In this document: positions 2,343 through 56,620 of the stretch, piece after piece
Layout of the letters: each line of letters begins with the position of its first letter
How positions within the stretch are numbered: the stretch's first letter is position 1
Assembly (NCBI GenBank): GCA_022711335.1
Contig: JAKLFF010000004.1
Location: forward strand, 10,592-74,591
Length of the DNA stretch: 64,000 nucleotides
From: Patescibacteria group bacterium
GTDB taxonomy: Bacteria; Patescibacteriota; Minisyncoccia; Moranbacterales; UBA2206
Direction of reading: 5' to 3'
Translations under genes and position numbers: made by a program
Notes under the pieces: generated by a model
What the model was told of the DNA's origin: nothing
Seen by the model: only the letters and a program-made list of their open reading frames with translations
The model's database searches: none

Positions 2343-2941
2343 TATTTTATAATCTTGTCCACTATGCCATATTTTTTAGCTTCTTCCGCGCTCATAAAAT
2401 AATCCCGCTCCGCGTCTTTTTCTATTTTTGAAATCGGCTGCTTCGTATGCTTGGATAAAATTTCATTGAGCCTTTTTTTGACGCTAAGGATATGCTTCGC
2501 ATGGATATCAATATCGGTCGCTTGCCCTTGCGTTCCTCCCATTACCTGATGAATAAGCACTTCGCTGTTAGGAAGAATTATTCTTTTCCCTTCTTTCCCG
2601 GAAGCCAGAAGCAGTGTTGCCGCCGAAGCCGCAAGGCCCACGCAAATTGTAGAAACATCTGCTTTGACATGCTGCATCGTATCATAAATAGCAAGCGCTG
2701 AGGTCACTTGACCGCCTGGAGAATTAATATAGAGCTTGATGTCTTCCTTGCTGCTCTGAGAATCCAGAAAAAGAAGCTGGGCGATAATACTGTTGGCGGA
2801 AATATCATCAACGGGACCGCCCAAAAAAATTATTCTCTCCTTGAGAAGCCTTGAATAAATATCGTAAGCCCGCTCGCCATAGCTGGTCTTTTCTATCACT
2901 GTGGGTATCAGATATTGATTTATAATATTATTTTTATTCAT
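2342..2941 (-). CDS. clpP: ATP-dependent Clp protease proteolytic subunit
   Basis: [24 protein letters not shown]...; the track ORF begins at a TTG (2977); the ATG giving [15 protein letters not shown] (2939-2941) is the more plausible start. Confidence 0.9.
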
Positions 2942-3031
2942 AATTTCGAATTTAAAACGATTTTTAATTTTTGGCAACTTGAATTTTAATATTGTTTAGA
3001 ATCTAAGATTTAGCACTTAGAATTTATTAAA

Positions 3032-4327
3032 TTAAAGCCTCTCCAGGAACTCAAATACTTTTTCATTCTCAAGAGTTCCCTTGCAATAGCTATACAATCT
3101 TTCCATATCCAAATTCTTCTCCATATTCCTAACATCTTTATAATACTTGAGGGTTTTGTTGATTTCTTCTTCTATTTCTTTTGTATCAGCTTTTATGTCT
3201 TCGTCTTTGGCGATTTGCCCAAGCGCCAGGGCGGAAATTATTCTTTTTTCCGCTTGAGGTTTCCAATCAGTTTTGAGATCCTCCTTGCTTTTTTTAATAT
3301 TAGCAAGATACTGGTCTATTGTCATTCCCATCGGGCTAATTTGATGTTCAAATTCATGAAGCATTTTTTCCGTTTCCTCCTTGACGAGAATTTCAGGAAG
3401 ATCCGTTTTTGAATTTTGGACGATACTGTCTAAAAATTCAGTTCTTCTGTTTTCTTTCATTTTATGCTCTTTCTCGTGTTCAAGCCCTTCTTTCAGGCTT
3501 TTTCGAAGCATTTCAAGATTTTCAAATTTGCCAAGGGATTTTGCAAAATCATTATTGATTTCCGGGGTCTGCCTTTCCTGAACTAAATTCATCTTGACCT
3601 TAAATGTAGCCGCTTTTCCAGCCAAATCTTTCTTGTGATAATCAGCCGGAAATGACAATTCGAATTCCTTTTCTTCCCCCTCTTTCATTCCGATTATATT
3701 TTCTTCAAATCCGGGAATAAAAACACCTTTTCCAATTATCAGCGGATGTTTCTCGCTCTTTCCATTTTCAATCGGCGCCCCGCCGACAGACACTTCAAAA
3801 TCAATTTCCACGCTGTCTCCTTTTTTCGCTTCGCGTCTGACTGTTACCAGCTTCACCCGGCTCGCGGCCAGTTTTTCAACTTCAAGATCAACATCCTTTT
3901 CATCAACCTGGCTTTCTTTTTTAGAAAATTCCTCGTTGATTTTTTTTATCTCTTTTTTGTAGGCTGGCTCTATTTTTATTTCCGGCATAATTGATACCGT
4001 TGCCTTATATCTAAGATCTTTTCCCTCTTCCATTTCCACTATTTCCACTTTAGGGCTGCCGATGACTTCCAATTTTTTTTTCTCCGCCAGCTGGCGGACA
4101 TATTCAACATAGCTCTTTCTGACCGCTTTTTCTGAAGCCTCATTGAGAATGGCTGCTTTTCCTATTTTTTGCTCTACGATATTTCTCGGCGCTTTTCCAG
4201 GACGAAAACCAGGAATTTTTATCTCTCCTGATAATTCTTCCGCCGCCTGGTCCAGATATTTTTTCCAATCCTCCCAAGACACCGCCAATTCAAATTCAAT
4301 TTGAGATTTAGGTAGTTTTTTGATCAT
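3032..4327 (-). CDS. tig: Trigger factor
   Basis: 431 aa; N-terminal ...GFRPGKAPRNIVEQK... ribosome-binding signature; the classic tig-clpP adjacency. Confidence 0.9.
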   Translation of the reverse strand: MIKKLPKSQIEFELAVSWEDWKKYLDQAAEELSGEIKIPGFRPGKAPRNIVEQKIGKAAILNEASEKAVRKSYVEYVRQLAEKKKLEVIGSPKVEIVEMEEGKDLRYKATVSIMPEIKIEPAYKKEIKKINEEFSKKESQVDEKDVDLEVEKLAASRVKLVTVRREAKKGDSVEIDFEVSVGGAPIENGKSEKHPLIIGKGVFIPGFEENIIGMKEGEEKEFELSFPADYHKKDLAGKAATFKVKMNLVQERQTPEINNDFAKSLGKFENLEMLRKSLKEGLEHEKEHKMKENRRTEFLDSIVQNSKTDLPEILVKEETEKMLHEFEHQISPMGMTIDQYLANIKKSKEDLKTDWKPQAEKRIISALALGQIAKDEDIKADTKEIEEEINKTLKYYKDVRNMEKNLDMERLYSYCKGTLENEKVFEFLERL

Positions 4328-25319: not shown

Positions 25320-25331
25320 ATTTGCAAAGCG

Positions 25332-25415
25332 TGCCTTGAGCGAGACTCGAACTCGCAATCCCTTGCGGGAACATGCTCCTGAAGCATGCGCGTATACCAA
25401 TTCCGCCACCAAGGC
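25332..25415 (-). tRNA. tRNA-Leu(CAG)
   Basis: 84 nt; long variable arm; anticodon loop UUCAGGA. Confidence 0.75.
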
Positions 25416-25419
25416 AATG

Positions 25420-25674
25420 CTACATTTTTTCTTTTAGAATTTCCCTGATTTTTTTTCTTCCAGCACAGCTTTTGTAATATCTTTCCATATATCTAGCCTC
25501 TGCTAGCAAATTGTAATTTTCCTGATAAATTAATTCCATCGGCAATCTATTTTTTGTACTTTCTACCTTGCCTTTTTCATGTTGTGCGAGTCTTCTTTTT
25601 AAATCATCAGTAGAACCAATGTAAGTTTTTCCATCTTTTAAGCTTTTTAAAATATATAGATATCCTGTTATCAT
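25420..25674 (-). CDS. Small GIY-YIG (URI-domain, UPF0213/YhbQ-like) nuclease family protein
   Basis: YLYILKSLKDGKTYIGSTDDLKRRLAQHEKG... Confidence 0.7.
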   Translation of the reverse strand: MITGYLYILKSLKDGKTYIGSTDDLKRRLAQHEKGKVESTKNRLPMELIYQENYNLLAEARYMERYYKSCAGRKKIREILKEKM

Positions 25675-25745
25675 GGCTTTACTAATTCCGCCCGCCTCGC
25701 GTCGACGAGCGGTCGTCTCCGCAAGTCGAGGCGGGCCATCAAGGC
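25675..25745 (-). other. Duplicated 5' fragment of tRNA-Leu (acceptor and D-arm) split by a 44-nt GC-rich nested hairpin
   Basis: The minus strand reads GCCTTGATGGC[hairpin GCCCGCCTCG...CGAGGCGGGC]GGAATTAGTA; compare the start of tRNA-Leu(CAG), GCCTTGGTGGCGGAATTGGTA. Confidence 0.5.
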
Positions 25746-26066: not shown

Positions 26067-26118
26067 CCCTCCTCTCCCCTTGGGAGAGGATGTCCCGTTT
26101 AGCGGGACAGGAGAGGGG
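26067..26118. repeat. GC-rich nested-hairpin element (CCTCTCC...GGAGAGG family)
   Basis: CCTCTCCCC-TTG-GGAGAGG, GTCCCG-TTTAG-CGGGAC, GGAGAGGGG; about 60% GC in a roughly 35% GC genome. Confidence 0.5.
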
Positions 26119-27169: not shown

Positions 27170-27702
27170 CACATTTAAAAAAGAGGCGACGGTGTCCGGC
27201 GGCGTTTCAGCGCCAAAGGAAGAATTGGAAAAACCCAATCGCAAGGAGAGGAGAAATGGGCGTTATTGTGTCTTGTTCCAAATGGAAAATTTATAATAAT
27301 ACAGTCACCGTCCCGGCCACCTGCAACCGCAACACCGGCTGAGCGACCCGTGGGCGCCCGCCAGACTGACGATGTCTGGCTAGTCAGCCCTGGGAAATGG
27401 CCGTAGTGTAACCGCCGTCCGCGCCCCCTCCGAGCAAGCCTCGGACCAGTCCACAAGGGACATTGGGCGCGGCCGGCACACACAGCATTTGCCCGCCATC
27501 GTCTGCGCGGGCAGAAAGGACAAATATGCGCCGCATACCCTTTTCAGGGTTGAGAACCAACGTCTCAGCGACGCAACCGGATGTCTGCAATCCAGACTCT
27601 AGTCCCGTGAATAGGCCCCGCTCCACGGAATTTACGCCACTGGAGCCGCCACGAATTTAGGACGTATTAGGGACGCAGTCTGATTGCAGACGTCACCCAG
27701 CA
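27170..27702 (+). ncRNA. Candidate structured noncoding RNA of unknown class (about 450-570 nt, about 60% GC)
   Basis: No ORF over 102 aa in any frame; many local hairpins; bracketed by a consensus promoter and a strong intrinsic terminator; GC content far above the flanking DNA. Confidence 0.45.
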
Positions 27703-27741
27703 GAGCCCAAGAGTTCTCAACTCTCGGGCTCATTTTTTTTA
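27703..27741 (+). terminator. Intrinsic terminator
   Basis: GAGCCCAAGAG...CTCTCGGGCTC hairpin followed by a T8 run. Confidence 0.75.
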
Positions 27742-33898: not shown

Positions 33899-33961
33899 TG
33901 GGTGTATCTGGACTTAAACCAGAGACCTTACGGATGTGAACTGTACGCTCTAACTTCACCC
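33899..33961 (-). pseudogene. tRNA-like remnant (D-arm-less, tRNA-Val-related)
   Basis: GGGTGAAG-TTAGAG...TCTGGTTTAAGTCCAGA-TACACCC; about 63 nt with acceptor and T-arm but no proper D-arm. Confidence 0.35.
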
Positions 33962-33974
33962 TGTTACATCTGAG

Positions 33975-34048
33975 TGGGTGCAAGTGGATTCGAACCACTG
34001 ACCCCTACCGTGTGAAGGTAGTACTCTAACCAACTGAGCTATGCACCC
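33975..34048 (-). tRNA. tRNA-Val(CAC)
   Basis: GGGTGCATAGCTCAGTTGGTTAGAG...; anticodon loop UUCACAC; flanked by a perfect 14-bp inverted repeat CCCTGTTACATCTG/CAGATGTAACAGGG. Confidence 0.8.
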
Positions 34049-34096
34049 AGATGTAACAGGGCAAGACTGAGCTAATCGTCCAAAGTCTTAAAATAG

Positions 34097-37569: not shown

Positions 37570-37651
37570 TTGTAGGGACAGACCTTATGTCTGTCCTGAA
37601 TTTTTTATTTGTATTTTTTTATTTTGGGCGGACACAAGGTCCGCCCCTACA
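37570..37651. repeat. REPIN/BIME-like 82-bp element, copy L (TIR TTGTAGGG/CCCTACAA, two 8-bp-stem hairpins)
   Basis: GGACAGAC-CTTAT-GTCTGTCC and GGGCGGAC-ACAAG-GTCCGCCC. Confidence 0.6.
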
Positions 37652-38682: not shown

Positions 38683-38764
38683 TTGTAGGGACAGACCTTG
38701 TGTCTGTCCTGAATTTTTTATTTGTATTTTTTTATTTCGGGCGAACACAAGGTTCGCCCCTACA
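38683..38764. repeat. REPIN/BIME-like 82-bp element, copy R (about 93% identical to copy L, same orientation)
   Basis: Same TIRs and hairpins as copy L. Confidence 0.6.
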
Positions 38765-54656: not shown

Positions 54657-55031
54657 TTGAAAATGCTAGGAAACCAGATCGAAAGAGCGAAGGAAGAAAT
54701 GCATGGCGAAATGAATAGTAAAGAGACAGGGCATTATTATAAAAATGAAAAAATAAATGGCATACATTTTATTGTACGCTGGGACGAGGGATATAGACAA
54801 TATACTGTGTATTTTCCGGATATTAAGACGTATCAGAGAATGGTAGACCGATATGGAATAACGGACCAAACCATAAGAATAAGCAATGATCCAAAAAAGG
54901 CTGAAAAAGTTTTTGATTATATTGAAAAAGAAGTAAAAAATGTTAGATATGCAGATCCTTATAGCTTATACAAAGAGGTTGATGAATTTATACAAAATTT
55001 GGACGATGAAAAAAATGAAGACGGGATATAG
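54657..55031 (+). CDS. Hypothetical protein (124 aa)
   Basis: TTG start; no motif recognised. Confidence 0.4.
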   Translation: MKMLGNQIERAKEEMHGEMNSKETGHYYKNEKINGIHFIVRWDEGYRQYTVYFPDIKTYQRMVDRYGITDQTIRISNDPKKAEKVFDYIEKEVKNVRYADPYSLYKEVDEFIQNLDDEKNEDGI

Positions 55032-55098
55032 TTAAACCAAATTCACATATACAGCCTGACATATTTATCATAAAACACTGCCCTAAGGTAGTATTTTT

Positions 55099-55173
55099 TG
55101 GTGGGACCAGCTGGATTCGAACCAGCGACCAAGCGGTTATGAGCCGCCTGCTCTACCACTGAGCTATGGTCCC
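55099..55173 (-). tRNA. tRNA-Met(CAT) (elongator or tRNA-Ile2)
   Basis: GGGACCATAGCTCAGTGGTAGAGC...; anticodon loop CUCAUAA; CCA encoded. Confidence 0.75.
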
Positions 55174-55443
55174 CAAATATTTTCTTAATTTTTTTCTTAA
55201 ATCCTCTCGACCTTTTGTTGTTTTATAATATTTTTCATTTCTTTCTGCGTCCTCTTTCTCAGAAAAACATTCATAATAAATCAGCTTGACCGGCAACCTC
55301 TTGCTAGTTGATTTAACCTTTCCTTCCTTGTGTTGATTATATCTTAATTTCAGATTACTCATAAAACCTATATAAAATTTGTTGTCTTTTAAACTTAGCA
55401 ATATGTAAACAAAAAACATACTTTTTACGATTATGCCCAGCAA
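55153..55443 (-). CDS. Small GIY-YIG (URI-domain, UPF0213/YhbQ-like) nuclease family protein (copy 2)
   Basis: FFVYILLSLKDNKFYIGFMSNLKLRYNQHKEG...; the last 7 codons (KYLGTIAQW, then TAG) are encoded by the 5' part of tRNA-Met; the real start is probably the internal Met (MFFVYIL). Confidence 0.65.
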   Translation of the reverse strand: MLGIIVKSMFFVYILLSLKDNKFYIGFMSNLKLRYNQHKEGKVKSTSKRLPVKLIYYECFSEKEDAERNEKYYKTTKGREDLRKKLRKYLGTIAQW

Positions 55444-55445
55444 AC

Positions 55446-55470
55446 TTGCTGGGCTACCGCTGAGCTATGG
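55446..55470 (-). other. Duplicated 5' fragment of tRNA-Met (acceptor and D-arm), followed by the hairpin CCCAGCAA...TTGCTGGG
   Basis: CGGGACCATAGCTCAGCGGTAG matches the first 21 nt of tRNA-Met with one substitution. Confidence 0.5.
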
Positions 55471-55475
55471 TCCCG

Positions 55476-55549
55476 TGGGCTCGTCCAGACTCGAACTGGA
55501 GACCTCGTCGATGTCAACGACGCACTCTAACCAACTGAGCTACGAGCCC
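55476..55549 (-). tRNA. tRNA-Val(GAC)
   Basis: GGGCTCGTAGCTCAGTTGGTTAGAG...; anticodon loop UUGACAU. Confidence 0.8.
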
Positions 55550-55591
55550 GGATAACATAATAATCTTATTTCAAAAAAAGAGTTTGGTCAA

Positions 55592-56620
55592 TTACTTCTT
55601 CCTTCTCCTCCCATGAAACGCCTGATGCACTTCTTTGAGCTGTTTATTAGTTATGTGGGTATACACCTGCGTGGTTGTGATTGAAGAATGGCCAAGCATG
55701 GCTTGCACACTTCTGATATCAGCCCCATTGATTAACAAGTCCGTCGCGAAAGAATGGCGAAGCGTGTGCGGATGGACGTTTTTTACAATTCCAGCTTTCA
55801 CCGCGTAGTATTTGACGATTCTTTGAATTGATCTCGGTGTTAGTCTTAAATTATCTGAATCTCTTTTCTTTTTTTCATCTTTGGCAGAAAATTTTTCCAA
55901 TCCTTTCACGTCCCTCACAAACAAGGCCGGATCAATGTCTGTTCTTTTGTCTAAATATTGCCGGATGGCCCTTTTGGCACTGTCAGAAATGAAAACCACC
56001 CGGATTTTTTCTCCTTTTCCTCGGACAGATAGCTCTCCGCTTCCAAGATCCAGCTTGTCGCGGTTAATTCCTACGAGTTCCGAAACCCGCAGCCCGGCAG
56101 AAAAGAGGAGTTCAAGAATTGCCTGATCGCGAAATGCTTTAAAACTCGCTCCAGAAGCAGCAGTAATAATCCTTTCCACTTCATCGGATTCTAAAAATTC
56201 CACCTCCCTTTCTGGGGTTTTGCCAATTTCTATTTTCTCTGCCTGAAGCGTCTTGATATCCCGCTTAGCCAAATACTTTAAAAAACTTCTGAGAGCAATG
56301 ATGTAATAGCTTTGCGTGGCTTTTTTTAGCCCTTTTTCATTTTTGTACTTATAGCGATTAAGAAATATCCGGTAGTTTCTAATCAAACCGTCTGTAATAT
56401 CAGAAGATTTATCGATTTTCGCCCAGCCCAAAAAATTGGAAAGATAGCGATCATAATTTTCAATCGTTTTTTGCGACCGTCCGCGCTCTATTTCCAAATA
56501 TTCTAAAAACTGAGTTTTTAATTCTCCTATGCCCATAAATTTTCTTTTGCAACACTCTAAATTATACTGTTTATAATCGTTTTTGACAAAAAGAGCAGTT
56601 TTGTGTATACTGGACACCAC
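55592..56620 (-). CDS. Tyrosine recombinase XerC/XerD-like
   Basis: ...HTLRHSFATDLLINGADIRSVQAMLGHSSITTTQVYTH...; the N-terminal 28 aa are probably not translated (start near MGIGELKTQFLEYLE). Confidence 0.8.
   Translation of the reverse strand: MVSSIHKTALFVKNDYKQYNLECCKRKFMGIGELKTQFLEYLEIERGRSQKTIENYDRYLSNFLGWAKIDKSSDITDGLIRNYRIFLNRYKYKNEKGLKKATQSYYIIALRSFLKYLAKRDIKTLQAEKIEIGKTPEREVEFLESDEVERIITAASGASFKAFRDQAILELLFSAGLRVSELVGINRDKLDLGSGELSVRGKGEKIRVVFISDSAKRAIRQYLDKRTDIDPALFVRDVKGLEKFSAKDEKKKRDSDNLRLTPRSIQRIVKYYAVKAGIVKNVHPHTLRHSFATDLLINGADIRSVQAMLGHSSITTTQVYTHITNKQLKEVHQAFHGRRRKK

Follow-up and report, generated by a model that had tools for sequence, protein, structure and literature searches.

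Small GIY-YIG nuclease genes paired with palindrome-disrupted tRNA copies: candidate homing-type cassettes at bacterial tRNA genes

Introduction

Why should a very small nuclease gene lie between two intact transfer RNA (tRNA) genes, end inside one of them, and be preceded by a broken copy of that same tRNA? The question is raised by a locus, here called locus 2, at positions 55099-55549 (minus strand) of a 64,000-nucleotide (nt) stretch of DNA from a Patescibacteria group bacterium (Moranbacteria; GenBank assembly GCA_022711335.1, contig JAKLFF010000004.1, positions 10,592 to 74,591), hereafter the window. Locus 2 holds an intact tRNA-Val(GAC), a disrupted copy of tRNA-Met (D), an open reading frame (ORF) for a GIY-YIG domain protein and the intact tRNA-Met (I). 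Comparison with related loci indicates three constant members: the ORF, one intact tRNA and a copy of the same tRNA that a palindrome disrupts. The answer that we favor, with a probability of roughly 0.55, is that this set is a selfish homing-type nuclease cassette of tRNA operons, which duplicates one tRNA and cripples one of the copies. The weaker statement that it is a mobile or break-inducing GIY-YIG cassette targeting tRNA genes can be made with considerable confidence. The observations behind both are the anatomy of the locus, its recurrence, the presence or absence of the cassette at one conserved site, the link of the ORF to tRNA genes and their orientation, partial tRNA duplications that break in loops, and constraint on both the protein and the palindrome.

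Results

Anatomy of the cassette

A preliminary description, made from the sequence alone, had given the minus-strand order as tRNA-Val, a copy of the tRNA-Met 5' end, a hairpin, the GIY-YIG ORF and the intact tRNA-Met, and ARAGORN, Rfam and Pfam bear this order out. The parts are as follows.

55563-55591, minus strand: promoter-like site TTGACC-17-TAAGAT, upstream of tRNA-Val (consensus scan)
55475-55549, minus strand: intact tRNA-Val(GAC) (ARAGORN, Rfam)
55454-55474, minus strand: first block of D, tRNA-Met nt 1-21, 20 of 21 positions identical to I (repeat comparison)
55436-55453, minus strand: 18-nt palindrome CCCAGCAAGTTTGCTGGG, standing in D in place of tRNA nt 22-33 (predicted fold; 20 nt with the closing G-C pair)
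55428-55435, minus strand: second block of D, CATAATCG, tRNA-Met nt 34-41, 7 of 8 matching, anticodon CAT kept (alignment)
55420-55427, minus strand: 8-nt leader TAAAAAGT ahead of the start codon, its length and sequence differing among relatives
55153-55419, minus strand: GIY-YIG ORF of 88 amino acids (aa), ATG at 55419 to TAG at 55153 (Pfam PF01541, E=2.6e-14)
55099-55173, minus strand: intact tRNA-Met(CAT), I, with CCA encoded (ARAGORN; Rfam 75.2 bits)
55077-55092, no strand assigned: hairpin right after tRNA-Met, terminator-like on the plus strand and possibly bidirectional (sequence scan)

D is a copy of tRNA-Met in which the palindrome stands for nt 22-33 and the ORF for everything past about nt 41. 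The tRNA-Met 5' end, GGGACCATAGCTCAGTGGTAG, recurs as GGGACCATAGCTCAGCGGTAG at 55454-55474 with a single mismatch (C for T at nt 16), and no match of this length is expected by chance. The repeat had been described as 22 nt long; it is 21 nt, the preceding C being the one spacer base between tRNA-Val and D, which is unlike the base upstream of the intact tRNA-Met. The account of a 5' copy followed by a hairpin was correct as far as it went, but the copy resumes past the hairpin with CATAATCG. In relatives this second block agrees with the local intact tRNA (9/9 in loci L081 and L086) and can be longer (L001 and L087). The ORF, whose start codon was set by alignment of homologs, does run into tRNA-Met as proposed, over a shorter distance than the seven codons and nt 1-24 first given: its final 21 nt, comprising the six codons for GTIAQW and the TAG stop, are tRNA-Met nt 1-21. 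Cleavage by RNase P at tRNA nt 1 would strip the stop codon and leave a non-stop messenger RNA.

No promoter-like site was found between tRNA-Val and the ORF, and it is therefore likely that tRNA-Val, the ORF and tRNA-Met are co-transcribed by read-through from the promoter-like site ahead of tRNA-Val. The promoter-like motif TTGACCAAA...GAAATAAGATTAT also lies upstream of tRNA-Val in a relative that lacks the cassette (L169, described below) and in L166. A CATAAT considered as a -10 box was rejected, as it reads CATAAC in half of the relatives and is wrongly spaced to any -35 box. Rfam found no RNA family other than tRNA in the window or in 20 related loci, and a known ribozyme, intron or RNA motif at the locus was dropped on that ground.

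A minimal GIY-YIG protein under purifying selection

The locus 2 ORF matches the Pfam GIY-YIG family PF01541 at 53.7 bits (cut-off 22.6), and the catalytic Tyr, Tyr, Arg, His and Glu of that family (Y5, Y16, R26, H30 and E62) show little or no variation among 33 homologs. Metal-dependent DNA cleavage by the protein is predicted from its superfamily membership. The conserved core is 82 aa long, a stand-alone catalytic domain without a DNA-binding module, and relatives are mostly 83-130 aa. Pfam matches are to GIY-YIG only, with the related T5orf172 domain in addition for the ORF of locus 1, a second element in the window that is described below. The nearest relatives of solved structure are the UPF0213 proteins BH0048 (1ZG2, E=3e-12) and EF2693 (1YWL, E=2.7e-11), with SLX1 (7WME) weaker at 0.008. 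Among relatives of the window ORF the rate of synonymous substitution (dS) is saturated and that of nonsynonymous substitution (dN) is 0.16-0.3, giving dN/dS of about 0.1-0.25 (0.18 for the least diverged pair); the locus 2 protein is thus under purifying selection.

The family is very large, with 17,911 clusters at 50% identity (E<=1e-3), and essentially cellular: tblastn gave no match in 50,697 INPHARED phage records and there were only 2 matches in 2.9 million viral contigs (IMG/VR). A phage origin was rejected on these counts, together with PHROG and PADLOC matches that were only weak. Nor is the protein an ortholog of SegB of phage T4 (BLASTP E=0.032 over 24 residues; hhalign probability 17%).

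The palindrome follows the nuclease clade

Relatives of the ORF were collected from genomes and metagenomes as 164 loci (L-numbers). All ORFs of the window subclade with recovered flanks have, within about 170 nt, a palindrome of the type (G)CCC[A/T]G[C/A/T]AAGCTT[G/T/A]C[T/A]GGG(C). Across eight distinct palindromes 97.5% of the cells are paired, with changes on both sides in 3 of 10 pairs, and no shuffle reached the observed covariation, even though synonymous sites in the adjacent ORF are saturated. The motif occurs beside 8 of 16 ORFs with at least 60% identity and beside 1 of the 147 below that value. Other ORF clades have near-perfect palindromes of their own, often flanking both sides of the gene (CCCGCCTTAGGCGGG, CCCTCCGAATCGGAGGG, CCTGCCTGCCGGCAGGCAGG, GCTGTGAACCACGTnGGGTTCACAGC). 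The palindrome is specific to the nuclease clade.

The tRNA that bears the palindrome may differ. It is found at tRNA-Met and, in L088, L089, L175 and L176, at tRNA-Phe, with exactly nt 22-33 replaced in both, and in the latter four loci it additionally replaces the T-loop of a 3' fragment. The order of the parts differs as well: D-ORF-I in the window, L081, L086, L092 and L096; I-ORF-D, with D complete to nt 76, in L087 and L174; ORF-I-D in L001; and D-I-ORF in L177 and L088. Many palindromes are symmetric through the center (AAGCTT here, and perfect 17-nt and 20-nt cases elsewhere), and this central symmetry fits use at the DNA level, as the site of a dimeric protein or as a cruciform, better than an RNA hairpin.

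Two origins of the palindrome were rejected. It is not a dispersed miniature inverted-repeat transposable element (MITE) or repetitive extragenic palindromic (REP) sequence, as there is one copy in the 64-kb window. Nor was it copied from the local T-stem; the CCAGC/GCTGG within the locus 2 palindrome resembles the T-stem there, but relatives do not follow. A 2-nt repeat (CG or TG) around the hairpins of L099, L124 and L039, absent elsewhere, was considered as a target-site duplication of inserted hairpins but can equally be read as closing base pairs.

A different arrangement was seen at tRNA-Asn and tRNA-Gln loci with another ORF clade (L002, L004, L005, L031, L106, L110, L111, L116 and others). 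There, a spacer of 80-250 nt separates tRNA and ORF and contains conserved, covarying hairpins on TGAACCACGT..GGGTTCA, some pairing with the tRNA CCA end; these have no Rfam match.

Filled and empty alleles of one site

The arrangement of locus 2 was also recovered, base for base, from an independent run (L085, SRR8554103), where the ORF is frameshifted toward its 3' terminus, and diverged D-ORF-I versions lie at tRNA-Met in more than 10 other samples and assemblers. Two further filled alleles, L086 and L096, have an upstream XerC-like gene 70% identical to that of the window, followed by tRNA-Val, D, the ORF and tRNA-Met, and their ORFs are 62-72% identical to the window ORF, a divergence similar to that of XerC. 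L169 is an empty site. Its XerC is 79% identical, its neighbors (UvrD, LysM/CHAP, XerC and a membrane protein) are those of the window, and just 21 nt separate its tRNA-Val from its tRNA-Met, without ORF, D or palindrome. Presence and absence are thus polymorphic at a conserved site, which is filled in the window, L085, L086 and L096 and empty in L169. The window D equals the L169 tRNA-Met at 29 of 29 comparable positions; the window I differs from the latter at nt 16, at the 31:39 pair and at one T-stem pair. A second relative, with XerC 88% identical, is probably also empty, as its gene table, the only view of it, leaves just 293 nt from XerC to the membrane-protein gene. Two other candidates were of no use, L167 having a different gene order and L166 ending inside tRNA-Val.

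The cassette occurs in other genomic contexts too (L081, L092, L174 and L177). L081 has it without tRNA-Val, and the "sandwich" of two tRNAs that the preliminary description had stressed is incidental.

Other differences were noted around this site. A 124-aa ORF at 54657-55031 of the window (plus strand), which has only a weak PHROG match, converges on tRNA-Met; its position is unoccupied in L169, and it is a second insertion/deletion difference between window and L169 at locus 2. In the close relatives L168 (2590-3279) and L170 (2636-2925), tRNA-Met lies on the opposite strand and its anticodon loop is interrupted, by about 250 nt in L170 and by a larger insertion encoding an HNH-type endonuclease in L168. 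The L168 insertion is presumably a group I intron that ARAGORN missed.

A family-wide link to tRNA genes

Adjacency was scored when a tRNA lay at most 250 nt upstream or at most 60 nt downstream of the ORF, and the expectation was taken from tRNA density elsewhere in the same loci. By this measure a tRNA adjoins 60 of 136 evaluable ORFs (44%), compared with 2.5% expected. All but one of the 68 adjacent tRNAs (67/68) are co-oriented with the ORF, and nearly all isoacceptor families occur. Peptides derived from tRNA were dropped as a proxy for adjacency, there being too few cases among 149 family representatives.

Where the tRNA is downstream, the position of the stop codon ranges between 23 nt inside it and 23 nt ahead of it, and is internal in 10 of 19 cases; the stops within tRNAs coincide with TAG triplets that are conserved in tRNAs (nt 8-10 and nt 19-21). 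The ending of the ORF inside tRNA-Met, which had been singled out as a special feature of locus 2, thus varies among relatives. It is a recurrent by-product of a very tight junction and of the TAG triplets conserved in tRNA genes.

Fragments of the adjacent tRNA, defined as ungapped segments of at least 12 nt around the ORF, flank it in 44 of 164 loci. When I is downstream, 5' fragments are found upstream of the ORF; when I is upstream, 3' fragments are found downstream. Six loci (L064, L088, L129, L154, L164 and L124) have both, and there the two complement each other without overlap. The four tRNA loops contain 57% of the 105 fragment breakpoints, compared with 36% expected from loop length, with peaks at nt 21-22, 33-37 and 56-58 (D-, anticodon- and T-loop) and boundaries fuzzy by 1-2 bases. 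This clustering is consistent with the predicted cleavage of tRNA genes by the locus 2 protein. In L088 and L164, the duplication extends 18-21 nt into the upstream flank. In L036 (2411-2872), five tandem 99-nt units of disrupted tRNA-Cys, each with nt 39-56 replaced by CCCGCCTTAGGCGGG, are followed by an intact tRNA-Cys and the GIY-YIG ORF. Duplications that include flanks and tandem arrays are marks of local segmental duplication, as break-induced duplication would give.

Several other unusual tRNA genes were encountered. At L089 (207-535), the anticodon loop of a tRNA-Phe that ARAGORN did not call is interrupted after CTGAA by about 250 nt, and a GIY-YIG ORF starts 4 nt past the 3' end of this tRNA. 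L175 and L176, which encode an identical ORF protein, share the ORF and everything downstream and differ upstream, with the switch in the first bases of tRNA-Phe; the tRNA-Phe start of L175, GCCGCGG, mismatches its own 3' acceptor strand, which suggests a recombination junction inside the tRNA. At L087 (2266-2345), a full-length palindrome-disrupted tRNA-Met is called by ARAGORN as an 80-nt "tRNA-Arg(TCT)".

Two cases of a tRNA within a tRNA were also seen. In the window at 33899-34081 (minus strand), an intact tRNA-Val(CAC) (34048-33974) is nested in a decayed tRNA-Val(CAC)-like gene, of which the 5' piece GGACGATTAGCTCAGT (34081-34066) and the 3' piece (33958-33899) are together identical to the intact gene at 56 of 74 positions; the insert is bounded by the inverted repeat CCCTGTTACATC / GATGTAACAGGG and has no ORF. 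In L170 (about 2935-3135; XerC 78% identical), a complete tRNA-Val(GAC) bounded by an 18-nt inverted repeat, CCCCCCACCAATTGGGTG, lies within the D-loop of another tRNA-Val(GAC), which ARAGORN recognized once the insert was removed. The L170 arrangement may be an ORF-less relative of the cassettes.

A second element in the window

The same type of element is found at tRNA-Leu(CAG), elsewhere in the window.

25331-25745, minus strand: locus 1 as a whole, consisting of D, hairpin, ORF and intact tRNA
25736-25745 and 25680-25690, minus strand: D, tRNA-Leu(CAG) nt 1-10 and nt 11-21, respectively
25691-25735, minus strand: 45-nt hairpin
25420-25674, minus strand: GIY-YIG ORF, 47% identical to the locus 2 ORF (Pfam GIY-YIG, 48.7 bits)
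25331-25415, minus strand: intact tRNA-Leu(CAG)

The two loci had been held to be identical in architecture, and they are only similar. No upstream tRNA abuts locus 1, and its stop codon lies 4 nt before tRNA-Leu(CAG) with no overlap. No close relatives of the locus 1 ORF were found among the collected loci.

Other features of the window

Three further observations concern other parts of the window. The stretch 27300-27720, about 420 nt, is GC-rich and hairpin-rich in a genome of 40% GC; it has no Rfam match even at E<=0.1 and no obvious long ORF on reading by eye, without an ORF scan. It may be an unrecognized structured RNA, such as a divergent RNase P RNA or transfer-messenger RNA. Near-identical hairpins, GGGCGGACACAAGGTCCGCCC and GGGCGAACACAAGGTTCGCCC, lie 1.1 kb apart at 37626-37646 and 38739-38759. 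Three CCCTCTCC..GGAGAGGG hairpins are found at 26071, 27094 and 37060.

Discussion

How might such a cassette arise and persist? If it is a selfish homing-type element, the nuclease would break tRNA genes, mainly in loop regions, and repair by homologous recombination would use the conserved tRNA sequence as portable homology. Repair would then either duplicate the tRNA around the nuclease gene or copy the D-ORF-I cassette into a naive tRNA gene, with D nt 1-21 as the left homology arm and I as the right arm. One tRNA copy would have to remain intact, here tRNA-Met at 55099-55173, and the surplus copy would be converted to a palindrome-bearing form in which the segment between D-loop and anticodon (nt 22-33) is replaced. 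The crippled copy would still provide the second homology arm; without the replaced segment it would also form a shorter direct repeat, and we propose that the insert is for this reason not easily looped out. In this model we infer that the nuclease cleaves tRNA genes, by which pathway repair proceeds and what the palindrome does. A more far-reaching version is tentative, namely that clade-specific palindromes and UPF0213-type mini nucleases together make up a class of tRNA-gene parasites of which no description was found in the literature searched. Each element would duplicate its target tRNA and put its own palindrome in place of a loop-to-loop segment in one copy; a dimeric nuclease might bind or cleave at the palindrome, and the host would depend on the intact copy adjoining the gene.

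Several points weigh against a homing-type cassette. D lacks nt 22-33, yet the intact tRNA-Met beside it retains the whole sequence and with it every base of the presumed target, so that classical target-site immunity would not apply, and nothing but a non-conserved spacer distinguishes the empty from the filled allele in sequence. An 82-88-aa protein without a DNA-binding domain would not be expected to cleave site-specifically as a monomer, and no cleavage data for any UPF0213 protein were found in the literature searched. The ORF (62-72%) and XerC (70%) have diverged to a similar degree in L086 and L096, which long vertical residence fits as well as repeated homing. The palindrome is kept while the order of the parts varies in four ways, which argues that it is functional rather than a scar, and in L088 the same palindrome occupies two tRNA positions, nt 22-33 and the T-loop.

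The most probable of the alternatives is that the host has domesticated the protein and uses it, as a structure-specific nuclease akin to Slx1, at heavily transcribed tRNA operons on R-loops, stalled forks or cruciforms. The gene would be kept in tRNA operons for co-expression, the palindrome would be a regulatory or binding site, and the tRNA fragments would be debris of old rearrangements. Strong purifying selection, a divergence about equal to that of neighboring XerC, and conservation of the palindrome under any gene order would all be accounted for, as would the size of the family and its almost wholly cellular distribution (17,911 clusters, no INPHARED match and 2 hits in 2.9 million viral contigs) and its resemblance to SLX1 and UPF0213 and not to the homing endonucleases of phages. 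We nevertheless consider this explanation unlikely. The gene is absent from the close syntenic relative L169, two diverged copies are found within 64 kb and two copies at several other loci, and tRNA fragments on the flanks, like tandem arrays, are usually seen with mobile or break-inducing elements. A housekeeping role, moreover, would not predict a crippled copy of the neighboring tRNA at nearly every site.

Another possibility, which we regard as improbable, is that a tyrosine recombinase (host Xer or an integrase acting in trans) moves the cassette. The palindrome, with its 7-bp arms around AAGCTT, would be the core, and the tRNA-end repeats would correspond to attL and attR, a layout known from islands that integrate into tRNA genes and from dif modules. 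A XerC-like gene does lie directly upstream of locus 2 (55592-56620), direct repeats of the tRNA end flank the insert, and the palindromes are shaped like core sites, with inverted arms and a short spacer. The breakpoints in the anticodon loop and T-loop are also integrase-like; integrases reportedly prefer particular sublocations within tRNA genes. The XerC gene, however, is part of the conserved synteny and stands equally beside the empty site, most cassettes lack a nearby recombinase (a XerC-like match occurs at only 8 of 165 loci), and the palindromes co-vary with the GIY-YIG clade and not with any recombinase. Duplications that take in upstream flank also misfit conservative site-specific recombination.

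Action on RNA is likewise improbable and ranks below the recombinase. Here the protein would be a GIY-YIG endoribonuclease that recognizes its cognate hairpin in a tRNA-like transcript, in the manner of Cas6 and the CRISPR repeat, and releases the messenger RNA or RNAs resembling tRNA fragments. A role in RNA has been suggested before on account of a fusion between an Slx1-like GIY-YIG domain and a TrmH tRNA methyltransferase (PMC1564403). At the present loci, each protein clade has its own cognate hairpin, the hairpin is always inside a tRNA-derived unit co-oriented with the ORF, and the anticodon is usually retained beside it. Against this, many palindromes are perfect through the center, where pairing is unusable in an RNA hairpin and would not be conserved, and the duplications and the empty site are left unexplained. 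To our knowledge, the GIY-YIG enzymes characterized so far are DNases.

Coincidence, or an assembly artefact such as collapsed or chimeric tRNA repeats, has a negligible chance: tRNA repeats can break or mis-join short-read assemblies, and the related contigs L019 and L166 do end at these tRNAs, but the arrangement stands in the independent run L085, recurs in diverged form in the other samples and assemblers (more than 10) and is found at numerous further tRNA genes, the 21-nt repeat is without chance expectation, and the ORF is intact and under selection. The preliminary description was right to call coincidence unlikely, and the collapsed repeat that it had named as fatal to its claim is practically excluded by the independent assemblies and samples of L085, L086, L096 and L081-L084 and L093.

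If the cassette is indeed a homing-type element, UPF0213/COG2827, a very large "hypothetical" family with two solved structures and no role found, would acquire a genomic context and a testable function. This would be a first biological role for about 18,000 protein clusters across the Candidate Phyla Radiation (CPR) and many other bacterial phyla, and a lifestyle like that of SegB would be widespread in cellular genomes, especially the reduced genomes of CPR bacteria, and not confined to phages. Such cassettes would also help to explain where tRNA pseudogenes, partial repeats of tRNAs, mis-called tRNAs and breaks in metagenome contigs come from. Furthermore, a minimal nuclease strictly paired with an 18-20-bp perfect palindrome would offer a compact, naturally diversified system of protein-DNA recognition. 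In the literature searched, the coverage of which is incomplete, we found no function or genomic context for UPF0213/COG2827 proteins and no description of UPF0213-type GIY-YIG genes tied to tRNA genes, of palindrome-disrupted tRNA copies, or of the trio of nuclease, palindrome and tRNA. Free-standing GIY-YIG genes in tRNA clusters are already known, and there is a fair chance that the relationship between nuclease, palindrome and tRNA is new.

Comparison with known systems

The UPF0213/COG2827 proteins (Bacillus halodurans BH0048, 1ZG2; Enterococcus faecalis EF2693, 1YWL; Escherichia coli YhbQ) and SLX1 belong to the same sequence family as the locus 2 protein and share its size and single-domain architecture. 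The tie to tRNA genes, tRNA fragments and palindromes is new for this family.

Collaborative homing in T-even phages joins a free-standing endonuclease gene to an insertion that splits the target, for example a group I intron without an ORF. The cassettes are similar in that a nuclease gene lies beside a non-coding insertion that splits a conserved gene segment, and the two are co-inherited and mutually specific. The difference is that a palindrome of 18-45 nt cannot splice; the interrupted tRNA copy is therefore dead, and an intact second copy is needed. Intron-like insertions in tRNA genes occur in the same organisms and the same genes, as in the anticodon loops of tRNA-Met or tRNA-Phe in L168, L170 and L089, one of them with an HNH ORF. 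In contrast to a group I intron in a tRNA gene, nothing interrupts the intact tRNA of the window, there is no match to an intron model, and the tRNA does not enclose the ORF.

Islands and prophages that integrate into tRNA genes also leave a direct repeat of the tRNA end (here 21 nt with 1 mismatch), one copy of it within the intact tRNA, and have breakpoints in the anticodon loop or T-loop; repeats of the tRNA 3' end occur in the other orientation class of cassettes. Unlike such islands, the cassette encodes no integrase, the GIY-YIG ORF being its sole gene, and measures no more than about 300-450 bp. In addition, many inserts adjoin the tRNA 5' end, a palindrome is present in the copy that was displaced, and the duplications may take in upstream flank. 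REP sequences and their associated RAYT proteins resemble the cassettes in pairing a single-copy nuclease gene with cognate, clade-specific palindromes. They differ in their nuclease (HUH/Y1 compared with GIY-YIG), and the palindromes described here are not dispersed (one copy paired as a hairpin in 64 kb) and always lie in a tRNA fragment.

SegB of phages T4 and T6 offers the closest precedent for the locus 2 cassette. SegB is a free-standing GIY-YIG homing endonuclease in a tRNA cluster. Its cleavage sites lie within tRNA genes, at a motif resembling the T-loop, and units of tRNA and segB are duplicated in tandem under its action, by way of homology that the 5' end of a tRNA shares with the 3' end of segB; it is found with tRNAs of many isoacceptor types (PMC2330249, PMC13096335). 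The parts of these two accounts consulted here mention no palindrome-disrupted tRNA copy for SegB (PMC2330249, PMC13096335). SegB is also phage-borne, as opposed to the cellular family considered here, and has 221 aa with DNA-binding modules compared with a catalytic domain alone of 82-88 aa, and similarity between the two is limited to the GIY-YIG motif. What they have in common is their setting. T4 segB lies between co-oriented tRNA genes, with its stop codon 5 nt before tRNA-Arg, and the locus 2 ORF also lies between co-oriented tRNA genes, with a very tight junction at its 3' end.

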